Source: Blastocatellia bacterium | Lineage (GTDB): Bacteria; Acidobacteriota; Blastocatellia; Pyrinomonadales; Pyrinomonadaceae | Length of the DNA stretch: 64,000 nucleotides | Assembly: GCA_034665305.1 (NCBI GenBank) | Contig: JAXDFZ010000010.1 | Coordinates: 307,567-371,566, forward strand | Reading direction: 5' to 3' | Shown: in pieces, positions 2,444 to 19,692 of the stretch | Layout of the letters: every line of letters starts with the position of its first letter | How positions within the stretch are numbered: position 1 is the stretch's first letter | Program-made: the position numbers and the translations under genes | The notes under the pieces: model-generated | Seen by the model: only the letters and a program-made list of their open reading frames with translations | Told to the model about the DNA's origin: nothing | Database searches by the model: none

Positions 2444-3238
2444 ATGATCAATCCCAAAAGCTTTCTTTACGAACTCAGTGACGCGGGCGTGGCGACGATC
2501 ACTCTAAACCGTTCGGAACGTTTGAACGCGATCACGTTCGACGTTTACCGGGAGTTAACCGATACGTTTGCGGCGCTGCGTGAGGAAAAAGATGTTCGCG
2601 TCGTAGTCATCACCGGCGCGGGCAAAGCGTTCTGTTCCGGCGGCGACGTTCACGACATCATCGGCGAATTGTTTGGGCGCGATATGCAGGGCTTGCTGGA
2701 TTTCACGCGCCTGACTTGCGCGCTAATTCAAAACATCCGCGCATTGCCGAAGCCGGTCATCGCCAGTCTCAACGGCACCACCGCCGGCGCCGGCGCCTGC
2801 ATTGCGCTGGCAGCCGACATGCGGATCGCGAGTGAAACCGCAAAGATTGCGTTCCTGTTTGTGAAGGTGGGATTGTCAGGTGCGGACATGGGCGCCGCTT
2901 ACTTGTTACCGCGCATTGTCGGTTTGGCGAAAGCTACCGAACTGTTGATGACGGGCGATTTCGTTTCAGCTTCGGAAGCGGCGGCGATGGGTTTGTACAA
3001 TCGTGTGGTTCCCGCTGACGCGTTGGCCGCCAACACGAAAGAGTTCGCGGAACGTCTGGCCGCCGGGCCGGCGTTCGCGCTGGCGAAGACCAAGGAGATG
3101 CTGAACCGCGAAATGCAAATGGATCTCGCGACCGCACTGGAAACCGAAGCCCAGGCCCAGGCGCTTTGCATGCAGCATACGGATTTCCGCGAAGCCTACG
3201 ACGCGTTCACAGCGAAACGTCCTGCGAAGTTCAAGTGA
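2444..3238 (+). CDS. Enoyl-CoA hydratase/isomerase (crotonase) family protein
   Basis: 264 aa with the crotonase fold signature GAGKAFCSGGD and an oxyanion-hole region. Confidence 0.85.
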   Translation: MINPKSFLYELSDAGVATITLNRSERLNAITFDVYRELTDTFAALREEKDVRVVVITGAGKAFCSGGDVHDIIGELFGRDMQGLLDFTRLTCALIQNIRALPKPVIASLNGTTAGAGACIALAADMRIASETAKIAFLFVKVGLSGADMGAAYLLPRIVGLAKATELLMTGDFVSASEAAAMGLYNRVVPADALAANTKEFAERLAAGPAFALAKTKEMLNREMQMDLATALETEAQAQALCMQHTDFREAYDAFTAKRPAKFK

Positions 3239-3377: not shown

Positions 3378-4532
3378 ATGGATCGGTTCATCGAAACAAC
3401 TCCGTTCTTTACTGCTACGCAACGCGCGCTGGCGACGCACGCAGCTGCGTTCACTGCGCGCGACGTTGAACCGCGGGCCGCTCAAGAAGAGGCGGGTCTG
3501 GACGAATCCTTTCGGGCCTACCTTGGTCTTTTGGTCGAGGCCGGCCTCTTGCCTTTTGCGGTGACTGTTCCCGGGCAGGCCTTCGATCTGCGATCGTTTT
3601 GCATAATTCGCGAAGCGCTTTCTTACTCTTCATCGCTCGCCGATCTGGCGTTCGTAATGCAGGGGCTGGGCACATATCCCATCAGCGTCGCGGCCAGCGA
3701 ACATGTGCGTGACTTCTGGCTCGAGCGGGCGGCCACCGGAAAAGCGATCGGAGCTTTCGCGTTGACCGAAGTTGAGGCGGGCTCCGACGTAGCGGGAATC
3801 AAAACCACGGCTTGCCGCGACGGCGACGCATATGTGATTGATGGCAGCAAGCGTTTCATTTCCAACGCGGGCCTCGCTGATTTCTACACCGTCTTTGCGC
3901 GCACCGGCACCCGCGCCGACGGCCGCGCTGAGTTGTCGGCCTTCGTGGTTGGCGCGCGCATGGCGGGATTTTCAGTTCGCAAACGCACGCAGATGCTGGC
4001 CGCACATCTGATCGGTGAAATCGAATTTAACAATTGCCGCGTTCCGGCAGAGAACCTGGTTGGCGCCGAAGGCGACGGGTTGCGTATGGCGTTGCAAACC
4101 CTCGATACCTTCCGCGCCAGTGTGGGCGCTGCCGCCTGTGGTCTGGCGCGCCGGGCCCTCGATGAAAGTGTTTCTTACGCAAAGACCAGGCAGCAGTTCG
4201 GCCGGCCGCTATCGAGTCATCAGTTGATCCAGGCGAAACTGGCCGACATGGTGACGGAGCTCGATGCGGCGCGCCTGCTGGTTTATCGCGCAGCCTACTT
4301 GAAAGATACGGACCACACGAATCGCTCGACGCTGGAAGCGAGCGAGGCCAAACTGTTCGCCACTGAAGCAGCCGGACGGATTGCTGACAGCGCGTTGCAG
4401 ATACACGGCGGCTCCGGACTGGTGCGCGGCAGCGTGGTCGAACGCGTCTACCGCGACGTGCGCGCGTTGCGCATTTACGAAGGCACTTCCGAAATCCAAA
4501 AACTGGTAATCGCGAATCAACTCGTGAAGTAG
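3378..4532 (+). CDS. Acyl-CoA dehydrogenase
   Basis: 384 aa with the acyl-CoA dehydrogenase middle and C-terminal domain motifs (GSDVAGIKTTA...YRIYEGTSEIQ). Confidence 0.9.
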   Translation: MDRFIETTPFFTATQRALATHAAAFTARDVEPRAAQEEAGLDESFRAYLGLLVEAGLLPFAVTVPGQAFDLRSFCIIREALSYSSSLADLAFVMQGLGTYPISVAASEHVRDFWLERAATGKAIGAFALTEVEAGSDVAGIKTTACRDGDAYVIDGSKRFISNAGLADFYTVFARTGTRADGRAELSAFVVGARMAGFSVRKRTQMLAAHLIGEIEFNNCRVPAENLVGAEGDGLRMALQTLDTFRASVGAAACGLARRALDESVSYAKTRQQFGRPLSSHQLIQAKLADMVTELDAARLLVYRAAYLKDTDHTNRSTLEASEAKLFATEAAGRIADSALQIHGGSGLVRGSVVERVYRDVRALRIYEGTSEIQKLVIANQLVK

Positions 4533-5189
4533 GACAGACATTCCTGTCTGTTCCAGTGAGCACCAATCTCAGTGGCCATTTTCACAAGGCCTTGGACTGG
4601 TGAAGAAGAGCGGCAAATATGGTTACATAAACAAAAAAGGAGCCGTTGTTATTCCTTTTCGGTTTGATGGCGCAGGCGATTTTGCGGAGGGCTCGGACTA
4701 GTGTTAATTGCAAGCAAGTATGGTTACATCGATAAGACTGGCAAGATCGTAATTCAACCACAGTTTGAGCGCTGCGGTGGTTTCTCTGAAGGATTGGCCC
4801 GATTTGTTGATAACGACAAAGTTGGTTACATAGATCGGACGGGAAAAGTTGTGATCGCGCCCTGGTTTGAATCCGGAGAACCCTTTAGCGAGGGGCTGGC
4901 GGAGGTTCAAGTCGACAGAAAATGGGGCTACATAAACAGAAGCGGGGAAATCGTTATAAAGCCCAACTTCGTAAGGACTGGACAGTTCTCGGAAGGCTTG
5001 GCACCGGTTTCACTGGGGAGCCATGGTGGCTTTATCGATACTACTGGTCGAATGGTCATCGAGAATATGTGGTGGGATATGGGCGAAGAATTCTTTGATG
5101 GGCTTGCATTGATGGAGACCAGTTACGGCCTGGCTTACATAGACAAGCGAGGGAACCACATTTGGAGGGAGAAGATCGCTCATCGTTGA
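4528..5189 (+). pseudogene. WG (KWG) beta-repeat protein remnant, 5'-truncated and carrying a -1 frameshift near 4690
   Basis: The 4701-5189 ORF holds about five WG repeats (KYGYIDKTGKIVIQPQFERCGGFSEGLA...). The same repeat continues upstream in another frame (4528-4701: ...WPFSQGLGLVKKSGKYGYINKKGAVVIPFRFDGAGDFAEG). Adding one G in the gagggctcgg run restores ...DFAEGLGLVLIASKYGYID. The upstream frame opens right at the acyl-CoA dehydrogenase stop with no start codon and no signal peptide. Confidence 0.5.
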
Positions 5190-5252: not shown

Positions 5253-6635
5253 GTGAACGAGACAACTTCAAAGAGAACCCAACTGGAGTCCCATCTCGCC
5301 CGCCGTCTCGGCCTTTTCGATACCGCGATGCTGGTGATGGGCGGGATCATTGGCTCCGGGATCTTTATCAATTCCTACGTGGTTGCTCAGCAGGTCCATT
5401 CTCCGATCCTGATTTTGGGCGCCTGGGCGGTTGGTGGTTTGATTGCGCTGGCCGGCGCGTTTATCTACGCCGAGCTCTCGTCGCAGACTTCGGCTTCCGG
5501 TGGCCAATACATTTATTTGCGCGACGCGTTTCATCCTTCCATCGCGTTTCTCTACGGTTGGGCGCTGCTGCTGGTTATTCAAACCGGAGGCATGGCAGCG
5601 GTAGCAATCACCTTCGCCAAATATTTTTTGGAAGTGGGCCACCTGTCTGGTGGCGATCGTAACGCGGCGATCGTCGCGGTGATTGCCTTGAGCGCGCTCA
5701 CGCTGATTAATTGCCTCGGCGTGCGGGCGGGAAGTACGACGCAAAACGTCTTCATGATTCTGAAGTTGATTGCCATCGCTGTGCTGGTTGCCTGGGGATT
5801 GACGGTTAGCGACTCAGCTCCCAGCGAAGGAATCACTGCTATTGCCGGGGGGACTTCGGATGTGTGGGCCATGTTGACGGCATTCGGCGCCGCACTTATT
5901 CCAGTGCAGTTTGCTTATGGCGGCTGGCAAACATCCTGCTTCGTCGCCGGCGAAGTGCGCGAGCCGCACAAGAACCTGCCGCGTGGATTATTGCTAGGCG
6001 TGTTGGGTGTGATTGCGGTTTATCTTTCAGTGAACTTCGTTTATGTCTACGCGTTGGGACCGGCGACCCTCGCGCAAACGAAGACTCCGGCGTCGGCCGT
6101 GATGCGTCTGGCACTAGGTGAAGGCGGCGCGCGCTTCATTGCCATCGGGATTGCCGTTTCCACTCTCGGGTTTCTAAGTCAAAGCATGTTGACGGCGCCG
6201 CGAGTTTATTTTGCGATGGCGCAGGATCGTGTGTTCTTCAGCGGGCTGGCGCGTTTGAATCGCGCGCGCGTGCCGGCAATGGCGATTGCATTACAGGGCG
6301 CGCTGGCGATTGTAATTGCGCTTTCCGGCCGCTACGAGCAGATACTGAATTACGTGGTTTCGGTTGATGTAGTTTTCTTTGCGCTCACGGCGCTGTGCGT
6401 GTTCCTGTTCCGAACTCGGGATCGTGCGCGCGGCGAAGCTCGGGTGGATACGTTTCGTATTCCCGGCCATCCTTTGACGACAATCTTTTTCATTCTCGCC
6501 TGCGGCGCGGTAATTGTGAGTACCGTTTACCAGTATCCACGCAACAGCGCGATCGGCCTGGGAATCATGCTGGCAGGGTTGCCGGTTTACTTTTTGTGGC
6601 GCAAACGGCCGGTCGACTCCGATCCTGTCAAATAG
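5253..6635 (+). CDS. APC family amino acid permease
   Basis: 460 aa with about 12 predicted transmembrane segments and an N-terminal GGIIGSGIF motif typical of amino acid/polyamine/organocation transporters. Confidence 0.85.
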   Translation: MNETTSKRTQLESHLARRLGLFDTAMLVMGGIIGSGIFINSYVVAQQVHSPILILGAWAVGGLIALAGAFIYAELSSQTSASGGQYIYLRDAFHPSIAFLYGWALLLVIQTGGMAAVAITFAKYFLEVGHLSGGDRNAAIVAVIALSALTLINCLGVRAGSTTQNVFMILKLIAIAVLVAWGLTVSDSAPSEGITAIAGGTSDVWAMLTAFGAALIPVQFAYGGWQTSCFVAGEVREPHKNLPRGLLLGVLGVIAVYLSVNFVYVYALGPATLAQTKTPASAVMRLALGEGGARFIAIGIAVSTLGFLSQSMLTAPRVYFAMAQDRVFFSGLARLNRARVPAMAIALQGALAIVIALSGRYEQILNYVVSVDVVFFALTALCVFLFRTRDRARGEARVDTFRIPGHPLTTIFFILACGAVIVSTVYQYPRNSAIGLGIMLAGLPVYFLWRKRPVDSDPVK

Positions 6636-6638
6636 ATT

Positions 6639-7733
6639 ATGATCAAACAGTCTGCTTACATGCACTGGGCCAAAACGCGACCGCGAGTCAAATATGACCT
6701 CGCCCTGAGCGGCGTTCTCAATCTGCCTTTCAGCGAACTGGACGTAGAACTCGCGGATCTGGATCTCAACGGACCGAATCCCTACGGTTATCCGCCGCTG
6801 CTCGAAGCGTTGGCAACCCATTGCAAAGTCACGCCGGAAATGGTCGTCACGGTTTCGGGTGGCACTTCGATGGCCAATCACCTGGCGATGGCGGCATTGC
6901 TGAATCACGGTGATGAAGTGCTCGTGGAAGAGCCAACTTACGATCCGCTGCTCGCCGTGGCGGAGTACCTCGGAGCCCGTATCAAAAGATTTGCGCGCCC
7001 GTTCAGCACCGGCTTTCGCATTGATCCCGAAGCGATTCGCGAACAGATCACCGAACGCACGCGGTTGATTGTTCTCACGAACATGCATAACCCGAGCAGC
7101 GTCCTGACCGATAACGAAACCTTGAAAGAAATCGGATTGCTGGCGCGAAGCGTCGGCGCGCGCGTGCTGGTCGACGAAGTTTATCTGGAGGCATTGTTCG
7201 AAGCCGGACCGTCTTCATGCGTTCATCTGGGGCCGGAGTTTGTGGCTACCACCAGTCTTACCAAAGGCTATGGCCTCAGTGGGTTGCGTTGTGGCTGGAT
7301 CCTCGCAGCGCCTGAATTGGCGCAAAAATTTTGGCTGTTGAAAGATATCTTCGAGGGTGTTGGGCCACATCCGACCGAACGTTTAAGCGTAGTGGCGTTG
7401 AAACAGTTGCGTCGCATCGCCACTCGCGCGAAAAATATTCTCCGAACTAATCGCGCCGCGCTTAATCAATTCCTGGAATCACAGGACGAGCTTCAGGCGG
7501 TGCCAACTGAATCGGGGACGACGATCTTTCCGCTTCTGCGCCACGGCAGCGTCGATATGCTTTGTGATTTGCTGAACCGCAAGTATGAGACGGCCATTGT
7601 GCCCGGGCGATTTTTTGAAATGCCACAGCATGTGCGCGTAGGAATCTGCTGTGAGCCGGAACTCTTTACCGGCGGCCTGGAAAGACTGGGCGCGGCATTG
7701 TCTGAACTACCGCAGACGGATCAGAGGCGATGA
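6639..7733 (+). CDS. Pyridoxal phosphate-dependent aminotransferase, class I/II fold
   Basis: 364 aa with aminotransferase class I/II core motifs. The start lies 4 nt after the permease stop, and its stop overlaps the next start (ATGA). Confidence 0.75.
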   Translation: MIKQSAYMHWAKTRPRVKYDLALSGVLNLPFSELDVELADLDLNGPNPYGYPPLLEALATHCKVTPEMVVTVSGGTSMANHLAMAALLNHGDEVLVEEPTYDPLLAVAEYLGARIKRFARPFSTGFRIDPEAIREQITERTRLIVLTNMHNPSSVLTDNETLKEIGLLARSVGARVLVDEVYLEALFEAGPSSCVHLGPEFVATTSLTKGYGLSGLRCGWILAAPELAQKFWLLKDIFEGVGPHPTERLSVVALKQLRRIATRAKNILRTNRAALNQFLESQDELQAVPTESGTTIFPLLRHGSVDMLCDLLNRKYETAIVPGRFFEMPQHVRVGICCEPELFTGGLERLGAALSELPQTDQRR

Positions 7734-9775
7734 GAATCAGCATCATTGGCGGTGGGCCAGCCGGGCTTTACTTCGCCATCCTCATGAAACGGACCGATCC
7801 GGCGTACGAAGTCACGGTCTATGAGCGGAATGGCCCAGACGATACATTCGGCTGGGGTGTAGTCTTTTCCGGAAAGACGCTAGCGAATCTGAAAGCGGCT
7901 GACGAAGAATCGTTCCGGCAAATCACCGATAGTTTTCAAACCTGGGACAACGTAGACGTCCGGCACCGCGATCAGCAGGTTACGATTCGCGGTAATCATT
8001 TTTCCGGCATCGCGCGTCTGGAGCTGCTGCGCATTCTGCATCGCCGCTGTCTGCAGTTGGGCGTCGAACTGAAGTTTCGCGCTGATCTGTCTCCTGCAGA
8101 TATTGCAGCGTTGCGAGACACTTCGAATCTGGTAATCGGTGCTGACGGTGTGAACAGCACGGTGCGCCGGGAATACGCGAAGGTGTTTGAACCGACGCTC
8201 GGAGTCCGCACGAATAGATATATTTGGTACGGCACACACCGCTTGTTCCATGGTTTGACGCTGACCTTTCGCGAGAATCCAGACGGCGTTTTCGCCGCGC
8301 ATTCATACAAATTCAACGAATCCACCAGTACGTTCATCATTGAGTGTGATGAACAAACCTGGAGGCGCGCCGGTTTCGCGGAGATGACGGACGCGGCGAC
8401 CCGAAGTTATCTGGAGCAGGTGTTTGCGCCGGACCTCGACGGCCACTCGTTGTTATCCAACAATTCAAAATGGATTAACTTTCTGCTCGTAAAGAACGCG
8501 AGTTGGAGTTACGGCAACATGGTCTTGCTGGGTGACGCGTTGCACACGGCGCATTTCTCGATCGGCTCAGGAACTAAACTAGCGTTCGAGGATGCGATCG
8601 CTCTACACAAGTGTTTTGCCGGGTCGGCAGATGTGCGTTCTGCTTTGGAAGAATTCGAAAAAGTGCGGAAGCCGGTCATCGAAGAATACCAGGCCGCCGC
8701 CTACGACAGCATGGTTTGGTTTGAGAACGCGAGGCAGTACATGCACCTCGATCCGGTCGAGCTAGCGTATGTGTTGATGACCCGCAGTGGGAAAGTCGAT
8801 CGCGACAGTTTGCAGCGGCGAGATCCGGAGTTTGTGGCGAGGTATGAGGCGTCGCGCGAATCGAATTGCTTCCGCGCTGGGACCAAGGTCAAAACAGGAA
8901 AAGGGTGGCGGGTAATTGAAGAAATTCAACCAGGCGAACTTGTTTTGTCTTATGAGAACGGCTTGCGCATGGTGGTTAGTTTACAGAAGCGACCGCATGT
9001 TGGAAGGTTACTTGGGCTTCGTTTGCGATCAAACATTGGGATTGTTTGGGTGACGCCAGACCAATGCTTTCTTGCCCCCTCTCCGCAAGCGGAGAGGGGG
9101 TTGGGGGGAAAGGAAGAGGCGCCAGCTAACCCCACCCCAAACCCCTCCCCGCGGGCGGGGAGGGGGAAGAACGCTGAGGTTCAGTGGAAACTCGGTGGAA
9201 CTTCTCCGACAACCGCTTACTTAGCACGGCAGTTACGAAAGGACTCAACCTCGGCAGAAAGGATTCTTTGGGAGTGTTTGCGCGGGCGGCGTTTAGCTGG
9301 TGCCAAGTTCCGCCGACAACATCCACTGGGAACCAATTATATAGCTGACTTTTATTGTTCTGAGGTGGGGTTAGCGATTGAGCTCGATGGAAGCGTGCAT
9401 GACTCTAATAAGGGGCGATGGGCCGACGGGATTCGACATCGACAACTGGCAGTGAGCGGCGTCAAGTTCTTGCGCTTTGAAAACTCACGGGTCTTCGACG
9501 ATTTAGATGGTTTATTACATCAGATCGCGCAATATCTCGTCGCTTCCAACCCCCAACCTGAGGGTAGTGAGGAACGACCAAAATGGCGAATAGCGAAAGA
9601 CCTTCTTCCCGGGGACCGACTGATCATTGACGAACACGGGCGCGTAGAATTCATCGAGAGTGTCGATCAGATTGTTGTTAATGAATCCGTTTACGATCTG
9701 GTGCTCGAACGGAACAGCCCATTTATTACCGAAGCGGGAGTTGTGCGCAGCCTTCATACGAGTGAAGTACAATAG
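7730..9775 (+). CDS. FAD-dependent monooxygenase. It is the N-terminal half of a 2-aminobenzoyl-CoA monooxygenase/reductase, also called a salicylyl-CoA 5-hydroxylase-like bifunctional enzyme. It is fused in frame to an intein-like Hint domain that encloses a DUF559 endonuclease.
   Basis: Residues 1-379 ([34 protein letters not shown]...[22 protein letters not shown]) match the monooxygenase half of the bifunctional aminobenzoyl/salicylyl-CoA monooxygenase-reductases. From Cys380 (nt 8867) the sequence switches to Hint block A ([28 protein letters not shown]) and block B (IVWVTPDQ). It then reads through a REP element, a DUF559 domain and Hint C-terminal blocks ([19 protein letters not shown]) before the stop. 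Confidence 0.7.
   Translation: [681 protein letters not shown]
8867..9760 (+). other. Intein-like (Hint) element with a nested DUF559/Vsr-like endonuclease domain, probably degenerate
   Basis: Block A begins with Cys. Block B reads TPDQ where the canonical motif is TXXH. The C-terminal block reads GVVRSLHT where VVHN is expected. Only 4 codons (SEVQ) follow as a C-extein before TAG. The DUF559 region (about 9185-9543) has the hallmark YIADFYC...LAIELDG...H...D...R...VLRFEN motif. Confidence 0.6.
9075..9166. repeat. GC-rich triple-palindrome REP-like element family A, copy 1. It is inserted in frame inside the intein-like ORF.
   Basis: CCCCCTCTCCGCAAGCGGAGAGGGGG ... AACCCCACCCCAA ... CCCCTCCCCGCGGGCGGGGAGGGG. 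The first and third modules are perfect palindromes. It is translated as [31 protein letters not shown] without a stop. Confidence 0.8.
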
Positions 9776-9781
9776 TATTGA

Positions 9782-11335
9782 TTATCCCTGCCACTTGGGC
9801 GCCAGTAATCGCCGGCGGCCATCATTCGCCAAGCTTATCCCTGATTCATCGAGCTCTTTTCGATCCCAAAGTTTGCAGGTCACCTGCTTGTGCGCCTGGT
9901 CCAGGGCCTCACAGTAGTTCGTATAAGTGCACCGCCTGACTTCATCACCGCGTCCGAGTCTGACTTTCAAAAACCAATCAGGATCGGCGAGTGCCTGGCG
10001 GGCGAGGCCAATAATGTCGGCCTCGCCGCGTTGCAGGATCGCTTCGGCCTGATCGAAGACAGTGATGCCGCCGGTTCCAACAACGGGAACATGAAACCCG
10101 GCATCATTGACGGCGGCTTTGATCGCACTAGCCAACGGCATCGACCGGCCAAATGGTCCAAGTTCATCGGACAGGGTCGTCGGCATGCATTCGTATCCGC
10201 TGCGGCCGGTGTACGGATAAACAGCTTCACCGACTTTTGGTTGCTGCGCGTCTTCGAACTTTCCGCCTTTCGAAAGTGAAAGAAAATCGAAGCCGGCTTT
10301 CGCGAACTCAATAGCGAAGTATCTGGCATCGTCCAGGCGGTTGCCGCCCGCAATCACTTCGTCACCCAGGAAACGCACCCCAACAACGTAAGCGTTTCCG
10401 ACGCGTTCGCGCACGGCACGATAAACCTCCAACGGTAGCCGCGCGCGTTCCGGGCGGGTTCCGCCATAACCATCACTACGGTTGTTCAGCGCGCTGAGAA
10501 AACCCGCCATCGTGTATGCATGGGCGTAATGAAGTTCCACGCCGTCAAAGCCCGCTTCGCGCGCTCGCCCTGCAGCATCAGCGAAAATTGCCGGCAGTGT
10601 TTGTGGGAGTTCCGCGATGTGCGGCAGGTGAGTGTCCGTTACGCGTTCGCGATAGCCGAGCTGCAAAGATTCCAGTTCCCGTTCGTTCAACACACTGGCG
10701 ATCACTTCGTCAGTAGCGTCCTCGAGAAAAGTACGTAACGCGCACTCGCTTGCGCTGAGCCAGTGATCATCGCCGGTCAATCGCGCCAGACGCTTACGAT
10801 GGCCCTCCGTCACTTCCAGAAAGCGTTGGAAGAACTTGCCCGGATCCGGTCGCCGTTTGATCGCCAGGAAATCGAGGATTTGAATGAACAAACGCGTTTC
10901 GCCATCGCTGGCGTCGCGCACCGTCTCGACGAGTTTCCGCAGGCCGGGAATAAATCGATCATGGCCAATGCGTAACAGCGGCCCACTGGGAATGTCGCGC
11001 ACACCGGTGGCCTCCACCACGATCGCGCCCGGCTTACCTGCAGCGAAGCGGCGGTACCAATCCAGGTTTTCCTGTGTGACAAATCCATCGTCGGTGGCCC
11101 GCCAGGGCACCATGGCCGGCACCCAGGTGCGGCTCGCGAGTGTGATGGGACCGATCGCGATCGGCCGGAACAGCAGTGAGCGAGCGGCCTCCTCGGCGGT
11201 GGGCCATCTTGTTTCCGGAAGCGGATGCTTGATTGGGTTAGCAAACTTCCACATAGAGTCTGTCAATTTACCACGGCTAACGCTCATGGAGTGCGTCGGC
11301 GACGGCGCTTTAGATATACGACCCTGCCGGCTCAT
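9782..11335 (-). CDS. NADH:flavin oxidoreductase of the Old Yellow Enzyme family. It matches the reductase half of the 2-aminobenzoyl-CoA monooxygenase/reductase and is encoded on the opposite strand.
   Basis: An OYE TIM-barrel follows the motifs LLFRPIAIGPITLASRTWVPAMVPW...GFDGVELHYAHAYTMAGFLSALNNRSDGYGG...VGVRFLGDE. The long open frame extends 5' to 11440, into REP copy 2, where only a TTG is available. ATG candidates lie at 11335, 11287 and 11254, so the true start is uncertain. The stop at 9782 is 6 nt from the stop of the convergent monooxygenase-intein ORF. Confidence 0.7.
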   Translation of the reverse strand: MSRQGRISKAPSPTHSMSVSRGKLTDSMWKFANPIKHPLPETRWPTAEEAARSLLFRPIAIGPITLASRTWVPAMVPWRATDDGFVTQENLDWYRRFAAGKPGAIVVEATGVRDIPSGPLLRIGHDRFIPGLRKLVETVRDASDGETRLFIQILDFLAIKRRPDPGKFFQRFLEVTEGHRKRLARLTGDDHWLSASECALRTFLEDATDEVIASVLNERELESLQLGYRERVTDTHLPHIAELPQTLPAIFADAAGRAREAGFDGVELHYAHAYTMAGFLSALNNRSDGYGGTRPERARLPLEVYRAVRERVGNAYVVGVRFLGDEVIAGGNRLDDARYFAIEFAKAGFDFLSLSKGGKFEDAQQPKVGEAVYPYTGRSGYECMPTTLSDELGPFGRSMPLASAIKAAVNDAGFHVPVVGTGGITVFDQAEAILQRGEADIIGLARQALADPDWFLKVRLGRGDEVRRCTYTNYCEALDQAHKQVTCKLWDRKELDESGISLANDGRRRLLAPKWQG

Positions 11336-11426
11336 AGACTCGAAAGCCCACCGTCTCAATCGTGTAACAGGAACGAATCCAAAGCGGTGTCGCGCTGCGC
11401 TTGCCCCGGACTCCAGATGTTCTTTA

Positions 11427-11516
11427 CCCCCTCTCCGCAAGCGGAGAGGGGGTTGGGGGGAGAGGATGCGACGGCGCTAACCCCACCCCCAACCCCTCCC
11501 CGCACGCGGGGAGGGG
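11427..11516. repeat. GC-rich triple-palindrome REP-like element family A, copy 2
   Basis: Same three modules as copy 1 and in direct orientation (CCCCCTCTCCGCAAGCGGAGAGGGGG ... CCCCTCCCCGCACGCGGGGAGGGG). It lies between the OYE gene's 5' region and kynU. Confidence 0.8.
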
Positions 11517-11571
11517 CTTACTCTGTGGTAAATTATCGTATCGAATAATTTGATAGCAGACGGAGTCTCCG

Positions 11572-12759
11572 GTGACCGATGATCTTCTCAAGTGGCGTGA
11601 CGAGTTTCCCATCCTCGAAAAGGCTGTCTATCTAATCTCGCACAGTTTGGGCGCCATGCCGCGCGCGACGTACCAGCAGCTGCAGGAGTATGCGGAGACA
11701 TGGGCCACCCGCGGTGTGCGCGCATGGGCCGAGGGCTGGTGGGAGATGCCGGTTACGGTGGGGAATGACGTGGGGCGGGTTATCGGCGCTGAGCCGCGCA
11801 CCGTCGTCATGCATCAGAACGTTTCTATTTGCCAGTCGCTGATTCTTTCCTGCTTTCAGCCGACACCCGAGCGAAACAAGATCGTCTATTCGGAGCTTAA
11901 TTTTCCGACGGTGATGTACGTCTATGAAGCGCACGCCCGCAATGGCCGCTTGCGCATTGAGACGGTCGAGTCAGACGACGGCATCACCGTGCCGCTGGAC
12001 CGGATGTTGGCGGCGATTGACGAAACTACTTTGCTCGTTCCGATCTCTCATGTTCTGTACAAGAGCGGTTTCTTGCAGAACGCGAAGGCCATTATCGAAC
12101 GCGCGCACGAAGTAGGCGCCATGGTGGTCCTCGATGTCTACCAATCGGCCGGCACCGTTCCCTTCAGTGTTACAGATCTGAACGTGGACTTCGCCACCGG
12201 CGGATCGGTTAAATGGTTGTGTGGTGGACCAGGGGCCGGGTATCTCTATGTGCGTCCCGATTTAATTCCCACGTTGCAACCGCAAACAACGGGTTGGATG
12301 GCCCATGAAGCGCCTTTCGCTTTTGACACCGACCTGCGCTATGCGCCGGGCATCGAAAGGTTCCTTCACGGCTCGCCTTCGATTCCGGCGCTGTACGCTG
12401 CGCGCAGCGGGTACAAAATCATCAACGAAATCGGTGTGCCGGCAATTCGGGAAAAAAGTGTGCGCCAAACAACGCGCCTGATTGAGTTGGCCGACGAGGC
12501 GGGATTTCATGTAACCAGCCCGCGCGATCCGGCGAGTCGCGGCGGCACGGTTACGATCGCGGCTGATCATGCTGCCGCAGTCACGCGAGAACTAGTGCGG
12601 CGCGAAATAATCGTCGACTATCGGCCGGGCGCCGGCGTGCGCATCTCGCCGCATTTTTATACCACTGACGATGAAGTCGAACGCGTCATCAGTGAGATGA
12701 AGATTATCAGGGACACACAGAGCTTTGAAACGAGCGACAAGGCCGGAGCCGCATATTGA
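11572..12759 (+). CDS. kynU: Kynureninase (PLP-dependent, aminotransferase class V fold)
   Basis: 395 aa with a GTG start. Kynureninase-like layout includes the KWLCGGPGAGYLYV region, matching the Pseudomonas kynureninase YKYLNGGPG. Confidence 0.75.
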   Translation: MTDDLLKWRDEFPILEKAVYLISHSLGAMPRATYQQLQEYAETWATRGVRAWAEGWWEMPVTVGNDVGRVIGAEPRTVVMHQNVSICQSLILSCFQPTPERNKIVYSELNFPTVMYVYEAHARNGRLRIETVESDDGITVPLDRMLAAIDETTLLVPISHVLYKSGFLQNAKAIIERAHEVGAMVVLDVYQSAGTVPFSVTDLNVDFATGGSVKWLCGGPGAGYLYVRPDLIPTLQPQTTGWMAHEAPFAFDTDLRYAPGIERFLHGSPSIPALYAARSGYKIINEIGVPAIREKSVRQTTRLIELADEAGFHVTSPRDPASRGGTVTIAADHAAAVTRELVRREIIVDYRPGAGVRISPHFYTTDDEVERVISEMKIIRDTQSFETSDKAGAAY

Positions 12760-12792
12760 GACCCGGAGCGCGCTTGCTCTTAGGCAATTAAC

Positions 12793-12875
12793 GGGGCAGT
12801 AGCCCGACCGTGAGGGAGGGCTCCGATTGAGTGCATGCGAGGGGGAGCCCTCCCTTACGGTCGGGCTACTGCCCC
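12793..12875. repeat. Near-perfect 32-bp inverted repeat (stem-loop) between kynU and kynA
   Basis: GGGGCAGTAGCCCGACCGTGAGGGAGGGCTCC, a 19-nt loop, then GGAGCCCTCCCTTACGGTCGGGCTACTGCCCC, with 1 mismatch. Confidence 0.8.
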
Positions 12876-12921
12876 GCTTCGCGGTAACCATCGAGCCGTC
12901 GCACTTCAAAACAGGTAATCA

Positions 12922-13824
12922 ATGACTAAAGACTACGGCGCCGAGGCCCCGCTCTCCTACAACAAGTATCTCCGCGTGCCGGAGCTGATCGACCTGCAGA
13001 GTTTGCTGTCCGATCCTGCGCACCATGATGAATTGCTCTTCATCACAGTTCATCAGGCTTACGAGCTTTGGTTCAAGCAAATCCTCCATGAGATTGACGC
13101 AGCGATCCGGTTGATGGATGAAGATCGAGGCGCGACCGCTGCGCGCGCGCTGCTCCGGGTGGTGGAGATCGAAAAACTTCTGGTCCAGCAGATTCATATT
13201 CTGGAAACTATGACGCCGGTAAACTTTCTCGCCTTTCGCGAAGAACTGAATCCCGCCAGTGGCTTTCAATCAATGCAGTTTCGCGAGATTGAGTTTTCTT
13301 CCGGTGCGAAAGATGAAGGCGTCCTGCGCCAGGCAGCAACAGATGAATTTGCGCTCGGGCGACTACAAGCTCGCATGGAAGCGCCGTCGCTGGGCGACAC
13401 TTTTTACGCGCTGTTACGCCGCCGGGGTTTTGATGCGCCCGCCGATGACGTGCCACCCGATAAGACCGAGCGCGGGCGACCGTACGGCAAGCGGGTTCGT
13501 GCAGTCCGCGACATCCTCGCTGATTTTGAAAATCACGAGCAGGAGTTTGCCCTTGCCGAAGCGCTGCTGGCACACGACGAATGGTTTTCCCTCTGGCGAT
13601 CGCACCACATCAAAATGGTCGAGCGCATGGTGGGTGCTAAAAGAGGGACAGGAGGATCGGAAGGCGTAGGGTATCTTCAGACTACGCTGACGAAAAGGTT
13701 CTTTCCGGAAATCTGGGAAGCTCGCACGTACCTGACGGCAAGCAGCCAAGAAGCCGGATGCCCGTTTGCCGGCGATCAGGCATCACAAAATGAAGAACCC
13801 TCATCCCCTGTCAAAGGAACATGA
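12922..13824 (+). CDS. kynA: Tryptophan 2,3-dioxygenase
   Basis: 300 aa with YNKYLRVPELIDLQSLLS...HHDELLFITVHQAYELWFKQILHEI...GFQSMQFREIEF...KRGTGGSEGVGYLQ, matching bacterial tryptophan 2,3-dioxygenase block for block. Confidence 0.9.
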   Translation: MTKDYGAEAPLSYNKYLRVPELIDLQSLLSDPAHHDELLFITVHQAYELWFKQILHEIDAAIRLMDEDRGATAARALLRVVEIEKLLVQQIHILETMTPVNFLAFREELNPASGFQSMQFREIEFSSGAKDEGVLRQAATDEFALGRLQARMEAPSLGDTFYALLRRRGFDAPADDVPPDKTERGRPYGKRVRAVRDILADFENHEQEFALAEALLAHDEWFSLWRSHHIKMVERMVGAKRGTGGSEGVGYLQTTLTKRFFPEIWEARTYLTASSQEAGCPFAGDQASQNEEPSSPVKGT

Positions 13825-15428
13825 CGATCCAATTCCCAGAGCGGTTCAACATGGCCGACTACTTCCTCTACCACAATCTGGAGGAAGGACGCGGCGATAA
13901 AGTCTGTCTTTATTACGAAGATCAAACCTATACGTATGGCGATGCGGCGCGCATGTCGAATCGCACCGGTAATGCGCTACGTGAGTTAGGTGTCGAGGTT
14001 GAGGATCGCGTTCTGCTGGTCATGCCGGATTGTCCGGAATTTGTCTGGACCTGGTTTGGCGCGGCGCGCATCGGTGCGGTTATCACGATGGTCAATCCAT
14101 TGTTGCCGGTGGATGACTACAAATACTATCTCGATTACACACGGGCCCGCGTGGCCGTGATTCATCGCTCGCTGATCAAAACTTTCACGGAAGCAGCCCG
14201 CGACACCACTTTTCTGCGCGCGGTTGTTGTTGTCGGGGACGACGAAGCCGCGACGGATCGGAGTCCCTTTCCCGGGGGCGAGAAGAGCGCAGTTACCGGG
14301 AAAGCGCGCTGGGTTGCCTTCAATGAAATAGTGTCAGCGCAGCCGCCCATCTGCCGCGCCGCCGACACGCACCGTGACGACATCGCAATCTGGCTTTTCA
14401 CTTCCGGTTCCACCGGCCACCCAAAAGGCGCCGTGCACCTGCAACACGACTTGCCTTACAACACCGAAGTTTTCGCCAAAGCGACGATGGGCGTTAACGA
14501 AAACGATCTGACAGTTTCGGTTCCGAAACTCTTTTTCGGCTACGCCACGGGAACCAATTTGCTGTTTCCATTTGCAGTCGGCGGAGCCACCGCGCTCTTT
14601 TCAGAACGTTCGACGCCGGAAAAACTTTTCGAAGTGATCCATCGTTACCGCCCGACAATTCTGACGACCGTCCCGACAATGATTAACTCAATGCTGAATG
14701 CCGACAACGCGCGGCAGCATGATCTGTCGTGCCTGCGGTTTTGCTATTCGGCGGGCGAAGCTCTTCCGGTCGAGCTTTATCACCGTTGGAAGGAAGTCTT
14801 CGGCGTCGAAATTTGCGACGGCATCGGGTCCGCTGAAATGTTTCATATCTACATCACCAATCGACCTGGTGATGTAAGGCCCGGAAGCCTGGGACGGACG
14901 GTTAACGGATACGAGGCCCGAATTGTCGACGCCGCAGGAAAAGAAGTTGCCGTGAACGAGATGGGCACTTTGAAGATCAAAGGCGACTCGGCCGCACTCT
15001 GTTACTGGAACGCGCATGAAAAGTCGAAAGAGGTGTTCGCGGGAGATTGGTGTACGACCGGCGACCAGTTTCACGCAGACTCTGAAGGATACTATTGGTA
15101 TCACGGTCGCACCGACGACATGCTGAAAGTCTCGGGTGTTTTCGTCGCTCCGGCCGAGATTGAGAATTGCCTGTTGCAGCATCCCGCGGTTTTGGAATGC
15201 GCAATCATTGGAGCTGCGGACGGTGATGGGTTGATAAAGCCGAAAGCGTTCGTCGTCCTTCGCCAAAGGGCAGAAGTCTCAACAAACGATCAACTAGCCC
15301 AGGACTTAAAAGATTTTGTGAAGTCTCGCCTGGCTCCTTACAAATACCCGCGCTCGATCGACTTCGTTTCATCACTCCCAAAAAACGATCGCGGAAAAAT
15401 CGATCGCAAGCAATTGAAGAGTGAGTAA
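13821..15428 (+). CDS. Benzoate-CoA ligase family protein, most likely 2-aminobenzoate (anthranilate)-CoA ligase
   Basis: 535 aa with an adenylate-forming enzyme AMP-binding motif (TSGSTGHPKGAV) and an N-terminal NMADYFLYHNLEEGRG typical of the benzoate-CoA ligase clade. Its start overlaps the kynA stop (ATGA). Confidence 0.8.
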   Translation: MTIQFPERFNMADYFLYHNLEEGRGDKVCLYYEDQTYTYGDAARMSNRTGNALRELGVEVEDRVLLVMPDCPEFVWTWFGAARIGAVITMVNPLLPVDDYKYYLDYTRARVAVIHRSLIKTFTEAARDTTFLRAVVVVGDDEAATDRSPFPGGEKSAVTGKARWVAFNEIVSAQPPICRAADTHRDDIAIWLFTSGSTGHPKGAVHLQHDLPYNTEVFAKATMGVNENDLTVSVPKLFFGYATGTNLLFPFAVGGATALFSERSTPEKLFEVIHRYRPTILTTVPTMINSMLNADNARQHDLSCLRFCYSAGEALPVELYHRWKEVFGVEICDGIGSAEMFHIYITNRPGDVRPGSLGRTVNGYEARIVDAAGKEVAVNEMGTLKIKGDSAALCYWNAHEKSKEVFAGDWCTTGDQFHADSEGYYWYHGRTDDMLKVSGVFVAPAEIENCLLQHPAVLECAIIGAADGDGLIKPKAFVVLRQRAEVSTNDQLAQDLKDFVKSRLAPYKYPRSIDFVSSLPKNDRGKIDRKQLKSE

Positions 15429-15499: not shown

Positions 15500-15988
15500 T
15501 TAGGGAGCACAAGTTCCGGAGGGATGCCCGGCGGTGGCTTCGCAATTATTTGAACAGCAGTTGCCGTTGCCCTGACAGGACTCACCCGGCTGCGCGCAAC
15601 TGGAAACGGCATGGACTGTCGGAGCGACGATAGAGGTAATTAGCGGCACCGCGATTACAGCAGCCAGTCCGATCTTTCGCATGACTGATCTACGGGAAAG
15701 GCGATTCAGATTCGCTGGTCGGTTCCAACGCTCCTGCAGCAAATCAAACTTTTCCAACTGGTCCAACGCGAGCCAGATCATCTCATCAGCGACGGGCGCG
15801 CCAAAATTTGTTTCAAAATGTGAGTGCAACTCCGAGAGCGTAGTGCGGCCGTCACAGTGTTTCCAAACAAATGCCGCAGTCTGATTCAGACAGTGTGCTT
15901 TGTCGCGGTCGAGATCGTAGATAAGAACTTCGTCAGGTAATTCCTGAACCACCAGGCGTTCCTGCCTGGCGGCGGGTAGATTTCTCAT
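15500..15988 (-). CDS. PqqD-family domain (RiPP-recognition-element-like) fused to one transmembrane helix and a C-terminal six-cysteine, knottin-like tail
   Basis: Residues 10-85 (LVVQELPDEVLIYDLDRDKAHCLNQTAAFVWKHCDGRTTLSELHSHF...) are PqqD-like. A hydrophobic helix follows (IGLAAVIAVPLITSIVAPTV), then C-x6-C-x5-CC-x3-C-x10-C (CAQPGESCQGNGNCCSNNCEATAGHPSGTC). Confidence 0.6.
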   Translation of the reverse strand: MRNLPAARQERLVVQELPDEVLIYDLDRDKAHCLNQTAAFVWKHCDGRTTLSELHSHFETNFGAPVADEMIWLALDQLEKFDLLQERWNRPANLNRLSRRSVMRKIGLAAVIAVPLITSIVAPTVHAVSSCAQPGESCQGNGNCCSNNCEATAGHPSGTCAP

Positions 15989-16213: not shown

Positions 16214-17626
16214 TCAAGAGTTCCGGCGATCGAGGTTGTAATCACGTAAGCGGCGATACAGCGTGGAAGGAGAGATGCCGAGGATCTCCGCAGTCTTGCC
16301 GCGGTGCCAGCCAGTTTGTTCCAGAGCCGACAGAATCTGTTGCCGCTCGACTTCTCGCAAGGACGTTGGGGTTCCGCTATCTGAAGTCGATCCACTCATC
16401 GACTGCGATCCGGCTGCGACTGAAAAACTCGTTAACGAAGCAGAACCAACCGAGGGGCGCGCGACTTCGGGTGGTAATTCGTCAAGCGTAATGAGGTTGT
16501 TGTTTGCAAGTAAAACGCCTCGCTCGAGGCAATTACGCAATTGTCGAACGTTGCCGGGCCAGCTGTAGGCGCGCAACGCCGCGCGTGCTTCCGGCGTGAT
16601 TTCGGGAGGTGCCGCACTCAGCTGTTTCAAAGTGTGTTCCGTCAGAGGCTCGATGTCTTCCGGCCGTTCCCGGAGTGGCGGCAGGCTGATCTGAAATCCA
16701 TTGATGCGATAAAGCAAATCAGAACGAAACGAACCATCCGCAATCACAGTATCCAGGTTGCGATTGGTAGCGGCGACAATGCGCACATTAACTTCGACCT
16801 TGCGCACTCCGCCGACACGAAAAAACGTACGGGTCTCAATTGCGCGAAGCAGCTTTGCCTGCAACGGGGCCGGCAGTTCCGTTACTTCGTCAAGGAACAG
16901 CGTCCCGCCATCCGCTAATTCGATCAGACCTAGCTTGCGTCCCTTAGCTCCTGAAAATGCACCTGCTTCATAACCAAACAACTCAGATTCCAGCAGCGAT
17001 TCCTGAAAGGCGGCGCAGTTCAAGTCGATAAAGGAAGCGTCAGCGCGGGTCGACAAACGGTGGATCGCGTGGGCGATCAACTCTTTGCCGGTTCCGGATT
17101 CGCCGGTGATCAAAACCGATGCATCGGAAGGCGCAACTCGCTCGACCAACCGCACGGCTTCGCGCATTGTCTGGGAAACAGAAACGATTTCTGGCAGCGC
17201 CGATTGGCGGGCGAGTTGCTCTCGCAACCTTTGATTGTCCACGCGCAAGCGGCGCTTTTCGGCCGCCTGCCGGACGCGAACGTCGAGTTCATTGATGGTG
17301 TAAGGTTTGGTGAGGTAATCATACGCACCCATCTTCATGGCTTCGACTGCTGTTTCAATCGTGCCATTGCCGGTGAGCATGATTACTTCGGGAGGGTTAG
17401 GCCGTTCGTGCACTCGCCGCAACAGTTCCATCCCATCCATGCGCGGCATGTTGATATCGCAGAGCAGAACGTCGACGTTGCTTTCTTCTAAACGTCGCAA
17501 GGCTGCCTCGCCGTCGGGCGCAACCTGTACGCGATAGCCGAGGCGCTGCAATTCCTTCTGCAACACCATGCGCAGGTTCGTTTCATCTTCGGCTACCAAC
17601 AGGCGTGTCGTCTGGGCTTCGCTCAC
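16214..17626 (-). CDS. Sigma-54-dependent Fis-family response regulator (NtrC-like)
   Basis: REC domain (LLVAEDE...D), an AAA+ sigma-54 interaction domain with GESGTGKE and GAFTGA-like motifs, and a C-terminal Fis helix-turn-helix. Confidence 0.9.
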   Translation of the reverse strand: MSEAQTTRLLVAEDETNLRMVLQKELQRLGYRVQVAPDGEAALRRLEESNVDVLLCDINMPRMDGMELLRRVHERPNPPEVIMLTGNGTIETAVEAMKMGAYDYLTKPYTINELDVRVRQAAEKRRLRVDNQRLREQLARQSALPEIVSVSQTMREAVRLVERVAPSDASVLITGESGTGKELIAHAIHRLSTRADASFIDLNCAAFQESLLESELFGYEAGAFSGAKGRKLGLIELADGGTLFLDEVTELPAPLQAKLLRAIETRTFFRVGGVRKVEVNVRIVAATNRNLDTVIADGSFRSDLLYRINGFQISLPPLRERPEDIEPLTEHTLKQLSAAPPEITPEARAALRAYSWPGNVRQLRNCLERGVLLANNNLITLDELPPEVARPSVGSASLTSFSVAAGSQSMSGSTSDSGTPTSLREVERQQILSALEQTGWHRGKTAEILGISPSTLYRRLRDYNLDRRNS

Positions 17627-19692
17627 GAAATCTGATCTCCGTCCTGACTGGCGGGAAGCGTAATGGTAAACGTCGTGCCGGCGCCTACCTTTGATTCGAC
17701 CTCTAACTTGCCTCCGTGCTCCGTTAAAATACCATAAGAAACCGCAAGCCCCAGCCCGGTGCCGCTGCCTATCTCTTTAGTAGTAAAAAATGGGTCGAAA
17801 ATCTTCGTGAGATTTTCCGGAGGAATTCCAACGCCGGTGTCGGTTACCTCGATTAGTACGTGCGGACCCTCGCGGCGAGTGCGCAATATCAATCGACCGC
17901 CAAGCGGCATCGCGTCTATCGCATTTGTCGCCAGGGCCACCACGGCCTGCTGCAAGTGACCTTCGTCGCCGGACACCGTAACTATGTCGTCTGAAGCCTG
18001 TATGACGATCTCAATCTTGTCGCCGCGTTGTTGATGAGTGACCAGACGTGCGGCCGAATGCGCCACGTCGTTAACGTTTACGCGGGCATGACGACCGGCC
18101 CGCGTGCGACTGAAATCAAGCAGTCCATTCGTAATGGTTTTGCAGCGGAATGCTTCATCGCGAATTAACCCTAAGTATTCGCGCAGGCTGTCCTCTTCAC
18201 CTGACGCATTGAATGCTCCTTCCCGGACGCGCGTCTCCAGCGCCTCAGCGCAGGCAGCAATAGTCGCCAGCGGGTTGTTAATTTCATGCACTATTCCAGC
18301 GGCCAGGCGCCCGACCGCGGCCAGTTTTTCCGCGCGGGCCACAGCGCGATCGGCTTTTACGCGGCTCGTAATTTCTTCACCGACGGTAATGACGTGGGTG
18401 ACTTTCCGGCTGCCTTCGGCGCGCATTGGAATCTTGCTGATCAGCCAGTGCTTCGTTTCGCCAGTCTCGCTTACGGATTCCTGTTCGATGCGTTCGATCT
18501 GGCCGGTTTCAAAGACGCGCGCGAACTCCTGTTCCAGTACATCGCGCTTCTGTCTGGTAAGCACTTCGAACACACTACGGCCCAGAGCCGCGCCACGGGG
18601 AATGCCAAGTTCGCCGAGTTCGCGGTTATGGTTCCAGGCAACGACTCGATATTCACGGTCTACAGCGTAGAGCGAGATCGGTAAGCTATCGATAATTGCT
18701 CCTGTGAAGCGCTGTTGTACTTCTGCTTCTGCAGTGCGGCGATCGACTTCCTGGGCAAGGGTCGCAGCAGACTCGCGGGCCGCGAGGTACAAGGAAGCGA
18801 TGTGCGAAGCCAGCGCCGCTTGTTGCGCCGCAGCATCGCTCAGGCGACATTCGGTCTCGCCGCAGTCATCGATGGAATCGAAAGCGATTATTAGTGCCCC
18901 TTTTGTTTTGCCGCCGAAGCGGATGGGCGAAATGTACTCGACGCCATGAATTTCATCGCGCAAGAGAAAGCGGCTAGCGTCGACGGATCTGGTCGGGGTG
19001 ACTGATGCCGCGTCCGCCAGCCAACCAGCGAACCGCTCAGCGTTAATCATCGACATTCCCTCGGCGCTACCTTCGCGATCGAATACGCATACGGCACTCG
19101 AGCCTTCGCTATCAACGATGGCGGCGCAGAGTGCGGCGCCGGTTGCTTCGTAGGTGCTGCCCGCCACACGTCTGACTACCTGGCCCGGATCTAGCGCGCG
19201 TAGCAAGCCCCGTCCTAAATCGGCCAGGAAACGTAACTCACGATTACTGCCCAGCAACTGCCACTCGCGTTTGGCGGCACTTAAGTGCGAATTGACTCGG
19301 GAGAGCAGCTCAGCGGGAGAGGATGGTTTGATGATGTAGTCGTCGGCCCCGGCAGCGAAAGCTTCAACCTTACTGGTTTCGGTGTTGCTGGCAGAAAAAA
19401 TTACTATCGGCAGTTGCTTCATAGCCGGCTGGGCCCGCACCAGGCGACAAAGCGCAAGGCCATCTACTTCCGGCAACTCAATGTCGAGCAGTACTAGATC
19501 GCATTGCTTCTGGAGAAGCATCCGCAACGCGGCCGGAGCGTCATTCGCAGTCAAAGCACGATGGCCCGCCCGTTCAAAAGTGCGACACAGACTTTTACGC
19601 GTGCCGGCGTCGTTATCGACGATCAGCAGCGTCGCGCCAGTTGAGAGTATTGGGTCGTTAGTTTTAGCCGAAGAAGCTGACATGCTTCGCAA
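17623..19692 (-). CDS. Hybrid sensor histidine kinase with an N-terminal receiver domain
   Basis: N-terminal REC (LLIVDND...D...K), central sensory (PAS/GAF-like) region, HisKA H-box ([10 protein letters not shown]) and HATPase_c (GTGLGLAVS). Its 5' end overlaps the regulator gene by 4 nt. Confidence 0.85.

Follow-up and report, generated by a model that had tools for sequence, protein, structure and literature searches.

How might a bacterium of the Blastocatellia break down tryptophan beyond anthranilate, and would it have to do so with an oxygenase gene that looks broken? This question is raised by a gene cluster in a 64,000-nucleotide stretch of DNA (contig JAXDFZ010000010.1, positions 307,567 to 371,566; hereafter the window, numbered from its first nucleotide). 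The contig, 514,720 bp from a Joint Genome Institute (JGI) metagenome, belongs to a Blastocatellia (Acidobacteriota) metagenome-assembled genome (MAG), in agreement with the acidobacterial host supposed by a first-pass annotation of the bare sequence. That annotation had read the cluster as a catabolic route from tryptophan via anthranilate to 2-aminobenzoyl-coenzyme A (anthraniloyl-CoA) and had called the gene of the key oxygenase/reductase disrupted.

The route can be retained, while the verdict on the oxygenase has to be revised. We consider it probable that this lineage-conserved cluster converts tryptophan via kynurenine and anthranilate to anthraniloyl-CoA, which would then be dearomatised and degraded in a beta-oxidation-like manner; that the anthraniloyl-CoA monooxygenase/reductase (ACMR) is encoded by two genes; and that one of them carries an unspliceable C-terminal intein, with the enzyme expected to be functional. 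Each enzymatic step is predicted from family membership, catalytic residues and gene linkage. Considering the family matches, the synteny, a comparison with Ralstonia and the published chemistry together, a catabolic tryptophan route appears to be the best explanation.

Conserved gene order and the presumed monooxygenase/reductase pair

Genes were assigned using a listing of the open reading frames (ORFs), profile searches against Pfam and NCBIfam, and sequence matches to PDB entries. For the synteny analysis we compared 80 species-representative related loci from Blastocatellia/Pyrinomonadaceae. The order of the genes for an Old Yellow Enzyme (OYE)-family flavoprotein, kynureninase, tryptophan 2,3-dioxygenase (TDO) and the CoA ligase was counted where at least 8 kb of downstream sequence was available (n=51), the upstream genes only in relatives with enough upstream sequence (n=56), and adjacency of monooxygenase and OYE only in loci with room for the OYE (n=71). 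Of the 51 loci, 49 have all four genes behind the monooxygenase, with order and orientation unchanged. RidA, an enoyl-CoA hydratase (ECH) and an acyl-CoA dehydrogenase (ACAD) lie together upstream of it in 54 of 56 relatives. In the window, the ORFs neighbouring the monooxygenase in the cluster are all intact. A gene order kept across about 50 genomes strongly supports the proposed assignment, and the alignments of ligase, kynureninase and TDO given below are in line with it.

The monooxygenase (7730-8863, plus strand) is predicted to be a stand-alone flavin adenine dinucleotide (FAD)-dependent enzyme, homologous to the hydroxylase half of ACMR. Residues 1-376 of the 681-aa ORF match positions 1-384 of the 768-position PRK08255 profile with 470 bits, which for the whole protein compares with a family cut-off of 1078 bits. 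The GxGxxG, DG and GD motifs are present in the translation, and identity to the N-terminal half of fused enzymes is 47% for one from Ralstonia and 50% for one from Gemmatirosa. No OYE domain was found within this ORF by profile search, hence it does not have the two-domain build of fused ACMRs. When the monooxygenase ORF was searched against a collection of 5.8 billion proteins, the closest homologues were hundreds of stand-alone proteins of 373-392 aa from Blastocatellia/Pyrinomonadaceae (66-80% identical), and the usual length in this lineage is about 377 aa.

On the opposite strand follows the presumed reductase partner, a 490-aa OYE-family flavoprotein (9782-11254, minus strand; Oxidored_FMN, E 2e-39). 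The two genes are convergent, with only 6 nt between the stop codons, and 67 of 71 loci have the OYE as tail-to-tail neighbour of the monooxygenase, in most cases less than 250 nt away. Its best 120 matches are stand-alone 490-aa proteins with 77-93% identity. Among the related loci it is 71-82% identical (median 75%), which exceeds the median of 69% for the monooxygenase. The ene-reductase motif HxxHxY is kept as ELHYAHAY. From this linkage we infer that the OYE acts together with the monooxygenase.

Two other ways of relating the pair to the fused enzyme were considered and rejected. A fused ACMR gene that was inverted or disrupted does not fit, as the relatives regularly have a stand-alone monooxygenase and a convergent 490-aa OYE. 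The gene is thus neither broken nor inverted, and the enzyme of this lineage would consist of two separately encoded pieces. Orthology of the OYE with the reductase half of ACMR is not supported, since an exhaustive search of cluster representatives returned no fused monooxygenase-OYE protein among the best 150 OYE matches; homology between the two holds. Judged by these sequence comparisons, the seemingly truncated monooxygenase beside a seemingly inverted OYE is the normal state, and the additional C-terminal sequence is an intein.

An intein-derived module at the end of the monooxygenase

The additional sequence (8864-9775, plus strand), for which the monooxygenase is the N-extein, comprises 303 aa and begins with CFRAGTKV directly after the end of the stand-alone homologues. 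It is composed of an N-terminal Hint part, a repeat, a DUF559 domain and a C-terminal Hint part, followed by the stop codon. Cys1 and Hint block A are present in its opening motif (Hint_2, E 5e-6), and a DUF559 endonuclease (about 9218-9538; 96.6 bits, E 1e-27) is inserted between the Hint halves. This domain matches PDB entry 3hrl (E 2e-11) and contains an EDxHD-type motif, AIELDGSVHD; the Pho RadA intein was matched at E 0.07. According to the account of Taylor et al. (2011) given in PMC9403480, Vsr-like DUF559/EDxHD proteins are a recognised family of homing endonucleases, the I-Bth0305I family. The same monooxygenase-intein architecture occurs in about 25 homologues, and the intein is sporadically distributed, being present in 5 of the 80 related species loci.

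Hence, the module resembles known EDxHD homing-endonuclease inteins in its Hint domain split by DUF559 with the E..D..HD motif, in its sporadic distribution and in the canonical motifs of some relatives. It differs from them in its host, a catabolic monooxygenase, in its insertion at the extreme C-terminus, which leaves only 3-10 non-conserved residues as C-extein, and in the window copy by decayed splice residues and an in-frame hairpin repeat of about 95 bp. The motifs are canonical in some relatives (P0005, P0006 and P0017), which show TPDH/TPEH, EDHSF and, before a Cys and a C-extein of 3-5 residues, AHN. In the window, the corresponding motifs read TPDQ, ERNSPF and VVRS followed by Leu. 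Block B has thus lost the His of TxxH to Gln, block F its His to Ser, the terminal HN is replaced by RS and the +1 nucleophile by Leu. With these changes the protein is not expected to splice. The decayed motifs are shared with the closest relative, L020 (TPDQ, ERN(S/H)(P/S)F, (R/Q)S then Leu).

Despite this decay, the whole 681-codon ORF is intact. Between the window and L020 synonymous sites are saturated, and the ratio of non-synonymous to synonymous substitution rates (dN/dS) amounts to 0.08 in the monooxygenase part and to 0.10 in the N-terminal Hint part, which indicates that both parts have been under purifying selection since the motifs decayed. The intein is inserted behind all conserved residues of the enzyme, where fused ACMRs have their inter-domain linker, so the monooxygenase is expected to stay functional. 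In another relative (L056, 11120-12030), Cys1 is replaced by Ser, and because the third intein codon is an in-frame stop, the monooxygenase has its normal length, which shows that the enzyme can do without the module. Beyond this stop, the reading frame of L056 stays open for the remaining roughly 290 intein codons.

Neither a split intein nor a gene fractured so that its C-extein lies on the other strand was retained: an IntC-like segment is missing from the OYE N-terminus, and the canonical relatives end with a C-extein of 3-10 aa. A homing target spanning the 3' end of the OYE gene is not supported, as the spacing in intein-free loci ranges from -26 nt to more than 1 kb and is mostly below 250 nt.

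The double-hairpin repeat (CCCTCTCCGCAAGCGGAGAGGG ... CCCTCCCCGCxxGCGGGGAGGG) occurs at 9073-9168 and at 11425-11519, and the two copies are 89% identical. The former lies in frame inside the intein ORF, where it is translated as PSPQAERGLGG..PTPNPSPRAGRG; the latter lies in the divergent control region between OYE and kynureninase. A pattern search gave 8 matches against 0.13 expected by chance, and among the related loci the repeat is restricted to those with an intein. In the intein homologues the repeat segment has a dS of 0.3-0.6 and a dN/dS of 0.3-1.1; the low dS and this dN/dS together suggest constraint at the DNA level.

On a more tentative note, Blastocatellia may possess a true two-component ACMR whose OYE was recruited from a lineage other than that of the fusion in Proteobacteria and Actinobacteria. 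In a sub-lineage, purifying selection may then maintain a Hint-EDxHD module that no longer splices, be it an appendage, permanent or self-cleaving, or an endonuclease cassette that is still mobile. We regard this scenario as possible but doubtful.

A proposed route from tryptophan to an alicyclic CoA ester

Apart from a second enoyl-CoA hydratase, all ORFs named in the first-pass annotation lie where it had placed them, with family matches far above chance. For permease, aminotransferase, kynureninase, TDO and ligase, both the coordinates and the families are borne out by the ORF listing and the profile searches. The two translational couplings that it had proposed are real as well, consisting of ATGA start/stop overlaps at 7730-7733 (aminotransferase and monooxygenase) and 13821-13824 (TDO and ligase).

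The proposed pathway would begin with the import of tryptophan or kynurenine by an APC-superfamily, L-type-like permease (5253-6635, plus strand; AA_permease_2, E 8e-55), whose best NCBIfam match is the L-type amino acid transporter family TIGR00911 (224 bits, below the cut-off). It is followed by a pyridoxal phosphate (PLP)-dependent, fold-type-I aminotransferase-like enzyme (6639-7733, plus strand; Aminotran_1_2, E 6e-37) with 3op7 and 8fft as best PDB matches. This pair is present in 17 of the 80 loci, always between the ACAD and the monooxygenase.

The TDO (12922-13824, plus strand; 300 aa; PF03301, 203 bits) would open the indole ring to give N-formylkynurenine. It aligns over its full length with the Xanthomonas enzyme 2nw7 (E 7e-56) and keeps the equivalents of H55, R117, H240 and T254. 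In some relatives the TDO has 417 aa (L003 15133-16386; L014 14246-15499), and the C-terminal part of the L003 protein matches the cyclic di-GMP (c-di-GMP)-binding PilZ domain. The window TDO is without this extension and overlaps the start of the ligase gene instead. After removal of the formyl group, by an enzyme encoded elsewhere or non-specifically, a kynureninase-like PLP hydrolase (11572-12759, plus strand; Aminotran_5 and KYNU_C, the latter with 57.9 bits against a cut-off of 27) would release anthranilate and alanine. The protein aligns with residues 3-379 of Pseudomonas fluorescens kynureninase 1qz9 (E 1e-48) and keeps the equivalents of D201, K227 and R375. These matches to solved enzymes, with catalytic residues retained, agree with the earlier identification of the two genes. 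In comparison with the bacterial KynA-KynB-KynU pathway, TDO and kynureninase are thus homologous, with haem-ligand/substrate and PLP residues conserved, but both are divergent, with scores below the NCBIfam equivalog cut-offs, and the KynB formamidase is missing from the cluster and the window.

Pseudomonads convert anthranilate to catechol by anthranilate dioxygenase and not via a CoA ester. Here, the next enzyme is an aryl-CoA ligase of the benzoate/anthranilate type (13821-15428, plus strand; TIGR02262, 557.6 bits against a cut-off of 375), which would form anthraniloyl-CoA. Its best PDB match is the anthranilate-CoA ligase AuaEII (4wv3, 437 bits). The ligase groups with benzoate/anthranilate-CoA ligases and not with aliphatic or phenylacetate ligases, as anticipated by the first-pass annotation; activation of anthranilate is predicted from this family membership.

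In Azoarcus evansii, the ligase is followed by ACMR, which forms 2-amino-5-oxocyclohex-1-ene-1-carbonyl-CoA, and by beta-oxidation-like steps (PMC4539516). In Arthrobacter Rue61a, anthraniloyl-CoA, hydroxyanthraniloyl-CoA and a cyclohexanedione-carboxyl-CoA were detected (PMC3534580). By analogy, the two-gene ACMR, FAD monooxygenase and OYE, may hydroxylate and hydrogenate the ring to yield the Azoarcus product. The resulting alicyclic CoA ester could then be processed in a beta-oxidation-like manner by the RidA/YjgF protein (1133-1531, plus strand; Ribonuc_L-PSP, E 3e-20), a crotonase-family enzyme (2444-3238, plus strand; PRK08258, 379.6 bits against a cut-off of 330), the ACAD (3378-4532, plus strand; domains Acyl-CoA_dh_1, _M and _N) and a short-chain dehydrogenase/reductase (SDR; 221-997, plus strand; adh_short, E 2e-63). 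In this scheme RidA is a candidate enamine/imine deaminase, the crotonase, an ECH or ring hydrolase, may act as hydratase or hydrolytic ring opener, and the SDR is a candidate 3-hydroxyacyl-CoA dehydrogenase. Profile matches support all four upstream families, as annotated before. The crotonase-family gene has a median identity of 78% in 64 relatives. The SDR adjoins RidA in only 8 of 80 relatives, which makes its membership less certain.

A comparable gene set surrounds the fused 785-aa ACMR-family enzyme on the Ralstonia solanacearum megaplasmid CP023017; there, SDR, ECH, ACAD and RidA are accompanied by a MarR regulator, a thioesterase and a ligase that carries the annotation 2-aminobenzoate-CoA ligase. 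The window shares with the Azoarcus evansii and Ralstonia 2-aminobenzoyl-CoA pathway the (here predicted) CoA activation of anthranilate, the subsequent PRK08255-family FAD monooxygenase and the co-clustered accessory set of SDR (46% identity to Ralstonia), RidA (41%), crotonase (49%) and ACAD (48%). In contrast to the single fused protein of about 770-800 aa in Azoarcus and Ralstonia, hydroxylase and OYE are two genes on opposite strands, and the OYE belongs to a distinct 490-aa subfamily. Furthermore, the cluster has a ligase of the benzoate/AuaEII type and is physically linked to kynurenine-pathway genes, and it contains neither the thioesterase nor the MarR regulator.

Several other genes lie in or around the cluster. 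In place of the second ECH annotated before, ORF 1577-2422 encodes a 281-aa SecD-P1-head-like protein (plus strand; SecDF_P1_head, E 2e-23), and there is no whole second ECH gene in the window. This gene, between RidA and the crotonase, occupies the same slot in 14 of the 80 relatives. A WG-repeat protein (4701-5189, plus strand; WG_beta_rep, E 3e-41) is absent from all 80 related loci and is probably not part of the pathway. A PqqD-like protein of 162 aa (15500-15988, minus strand), directly 3' of the ligase, is common only to the window and L020. Candidate regulators, a sigma-54-dependent response regulator and a hybrid histidine kinase, are indicated by domain matches at 16214-19692 (minus strand), followed by a GAF/HD-GYP/GGDEF protein (19789-22317); 28 of 80 relatives have, downstream of the ligase, a regulator 75-81% identical to that of the window. 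For this conserved sigma-54 regulator, no promoter of the -24/-12 type stood out above chance: the search pattern matched 95 times where 75 matches were expected, and the intergenic regions of the cluster yielded no good site.

Upstream of the window on the same contig, BoxC (TIGR03222, 832 bits) and BoxB (TIGR03225, 750 bits) of the aerobic benzoyl-CoA epoxide pathway were identified, both above the equivalog cut-offs. They lie 3.2-6.9 kb before window position 1 (L086, 2871-6534) and are followed by a TetR regulator, an ankyrin protein, two ECH genes, the last of which ends at window position 103, and then the SDR that opens the window. Thus, two CoA-dependent aerobic aromatic pathways adjoin on this contig. 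In L002 (1-4801) and L003 (1-4237), the two relatives with listed upstream gene calls, the box genes are not adjacent. The region upstream of RidA there encodes a molybdenum hydroxylase of the xanthine dehydrogenase family (2Fe-2S, molybdenum cofactor (MoCo) and FAD subunits) and a MobA-like protein. Such genes replace the SDR and the box genes in several relatives.

Competing explanations and biological meaning

A number of observations weigh against a complete tryptophan route with a two-gene ACMR. The relatives of the cluster are all MAGs. In the kynureninase-like protein Y226 of 1qz9 is replaced by Val, and it reaches 158 bits with the equivalog TIGR01814 (cut-off 246); in the TDO Y113 of 2nw7 is replaced by Phe, and TIGR03036 gives 254 bits (cut-off 391). 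A kynurenine formamidase of the KynB cyclase type (e.g. Pfam Cyclase, PF04199) or of the alpha/beta-hydrolase type, which the first-pass annotation had also failed to see, is not among the precomputed Pfam matches of the genes called in the 64-kb window and the 10 kb upstream of it. Nor does one recur in the variable gaps of the related clusters, which hold only membrane proteins, regulators and unrelated ORFs, so that a formamidase hidden there was dismissed. With no local formamidase, deformylation would fall to a gene elsewhere, a non-specific hydrolase or an enzyme already present. The aminotransferase-like enzyme stays below the cut-offs of its best NCBIfam matches (GntC, PRK07324 and VioD), and the unspliced intein may burden the monooxygenase with a 303-aa appendage. 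With the OYE half of the fused Ralstonia enzyme the OYE shares 34% identity across 217 aa; it has two insertions and is extended at the C-terminus. Outside the 490-aa group, the nearest relatives of the OYE in the exhaustive representative search are ordinary stand-alone OYEs of 375-396 aa. The ligase matches benzoate-CoA ligase (2v7b, 415 bits) nearly as well as AuaEII and is 34% identical to the ligase of the Ralstonia cluster; with BoxC and BoxB nearby, it could also serve benzoate.

Some of these points would fit a monooxygenase that works alone as an aryl-CoA 5-hydroxylase, forming 5-hydroxyanthraniloyl-CoA, or gentisyl-CoA from salicylyl-CoA; the OYE would then act further down the pathway, on an alicyclic or enoyl-CoA intermediate, or would have an unrelated substrate. 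The OYE is of another subfamily than the reductase half of fused ACMR and is transcribed from the opposite strand, the fused family is named "salicylyl-CoA 5-hydroxylase/oxidoreductase" in NCBIfam, and ACMR itself releases 5-hydroxyanthraniloyl-CoA when reduced nicotinamide adenine dinucleotide (NADH) is limiting (PMC3534580). The fused salicylyl-CoA 5-hydroxylase belongs to the same PRK08255 family, and for a stand-alone enzyme a hydroxylase-only outcome is chemically possible. However, TDO and kynureninase form the context here, salicylate or gentisate genes are absent, and domain matches reveal no gentisate-type or hydroquinone-type ring-cleavage dioxygenase in the cluster. The close tail-to-tail linkage in 67 of 71 loci, the better conservation of the OYE than of the monooxygenase and the retained HxxHxY residues also speak for a partnership, and a hydroxylase acting alone appears unlikely to us.

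In 49 of 51 loci the ligase gene is linked to those for kynureninase and TDO, and in the window it is translationally coupled to TDO, which likewise argues against a cluster whose ligase and CoA-ester genes serve benzoate or other aromatic acids via the BoxBC pathway, or provide anthraniloyl-CoA for quinolone- or aurachin-type biosynthesis. This idea draws on the high score of the ligase with benzoate-CoA ligase and its place in that family, on the box genes upstream and on the biosynthetic function of AuaEII, its best solved match. On the other hand, molybdenum-hydroxylase genes and not the box genes are found in L002 and L003, the cluster encodes no PqsD/KAS III-type enzyme, polyketide synthase (PKS) or non-ribosomal peptide synthetase (NRPS), and the set of SDR, ECH, ACAD and RidA matches that around a fused ACMR-family enzyme; a benzoate or biosynthetic role is thus very improbable. 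A pathway crippled in this genome, in which the intein remnant inactivates the monooxygenase and the cluster is decaying, is very unlikely as well: the four substitutions at the splice motifs leave no splicing to be expected, but the ORF is intact, the dN/dS values towards L020 are low despite shared decay and saturated synonymous sites, the insertion follows the last conserved residue at the linker position of fused ACMRs, and the neighbouring genes are all intact. We therefore keep to the catabolic tryptophan route with a two-gene ACMR as the probable function.

The kynurenine pathway, the 2-aminobenzoyl-CoA pathway and EDxHD homing-endonuclease inteins are each already known. In the literature searched, we found no description of both pathways physically united in a Blastocatellia-wide conserved cluster, of a two-gene monooxygenase/reductase with a distinct OYE, or of a terminal, decaying intein in a monooxygenase of the ACMR family. 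The cluster conserved in about 50 Blastocatellia/Pyrinomonadaceae genomes joins kynurenine genes to genes for CoA-dependent ring dearomatisation and thereby offers a compact, testable set for the poorly known steps assigned to RidA, the PRK08258 crotonase, the ACAD and the SDR. GapMind omitted tryptophan degradation via anthraniloyl-CoA monooxygenase/reductase for lack of knowledge (PMC9007349), which gives a conserved gene set some practical value. For enzymology, the split hydroxylase/OYE would be a natural system for the hand-over of an unstable hydroxylated intermediate between flavoproteins. Ecologically, the cluster points to catabolism of aromatic amino acids in abundant, rarely cultured soil Acidobacteria.

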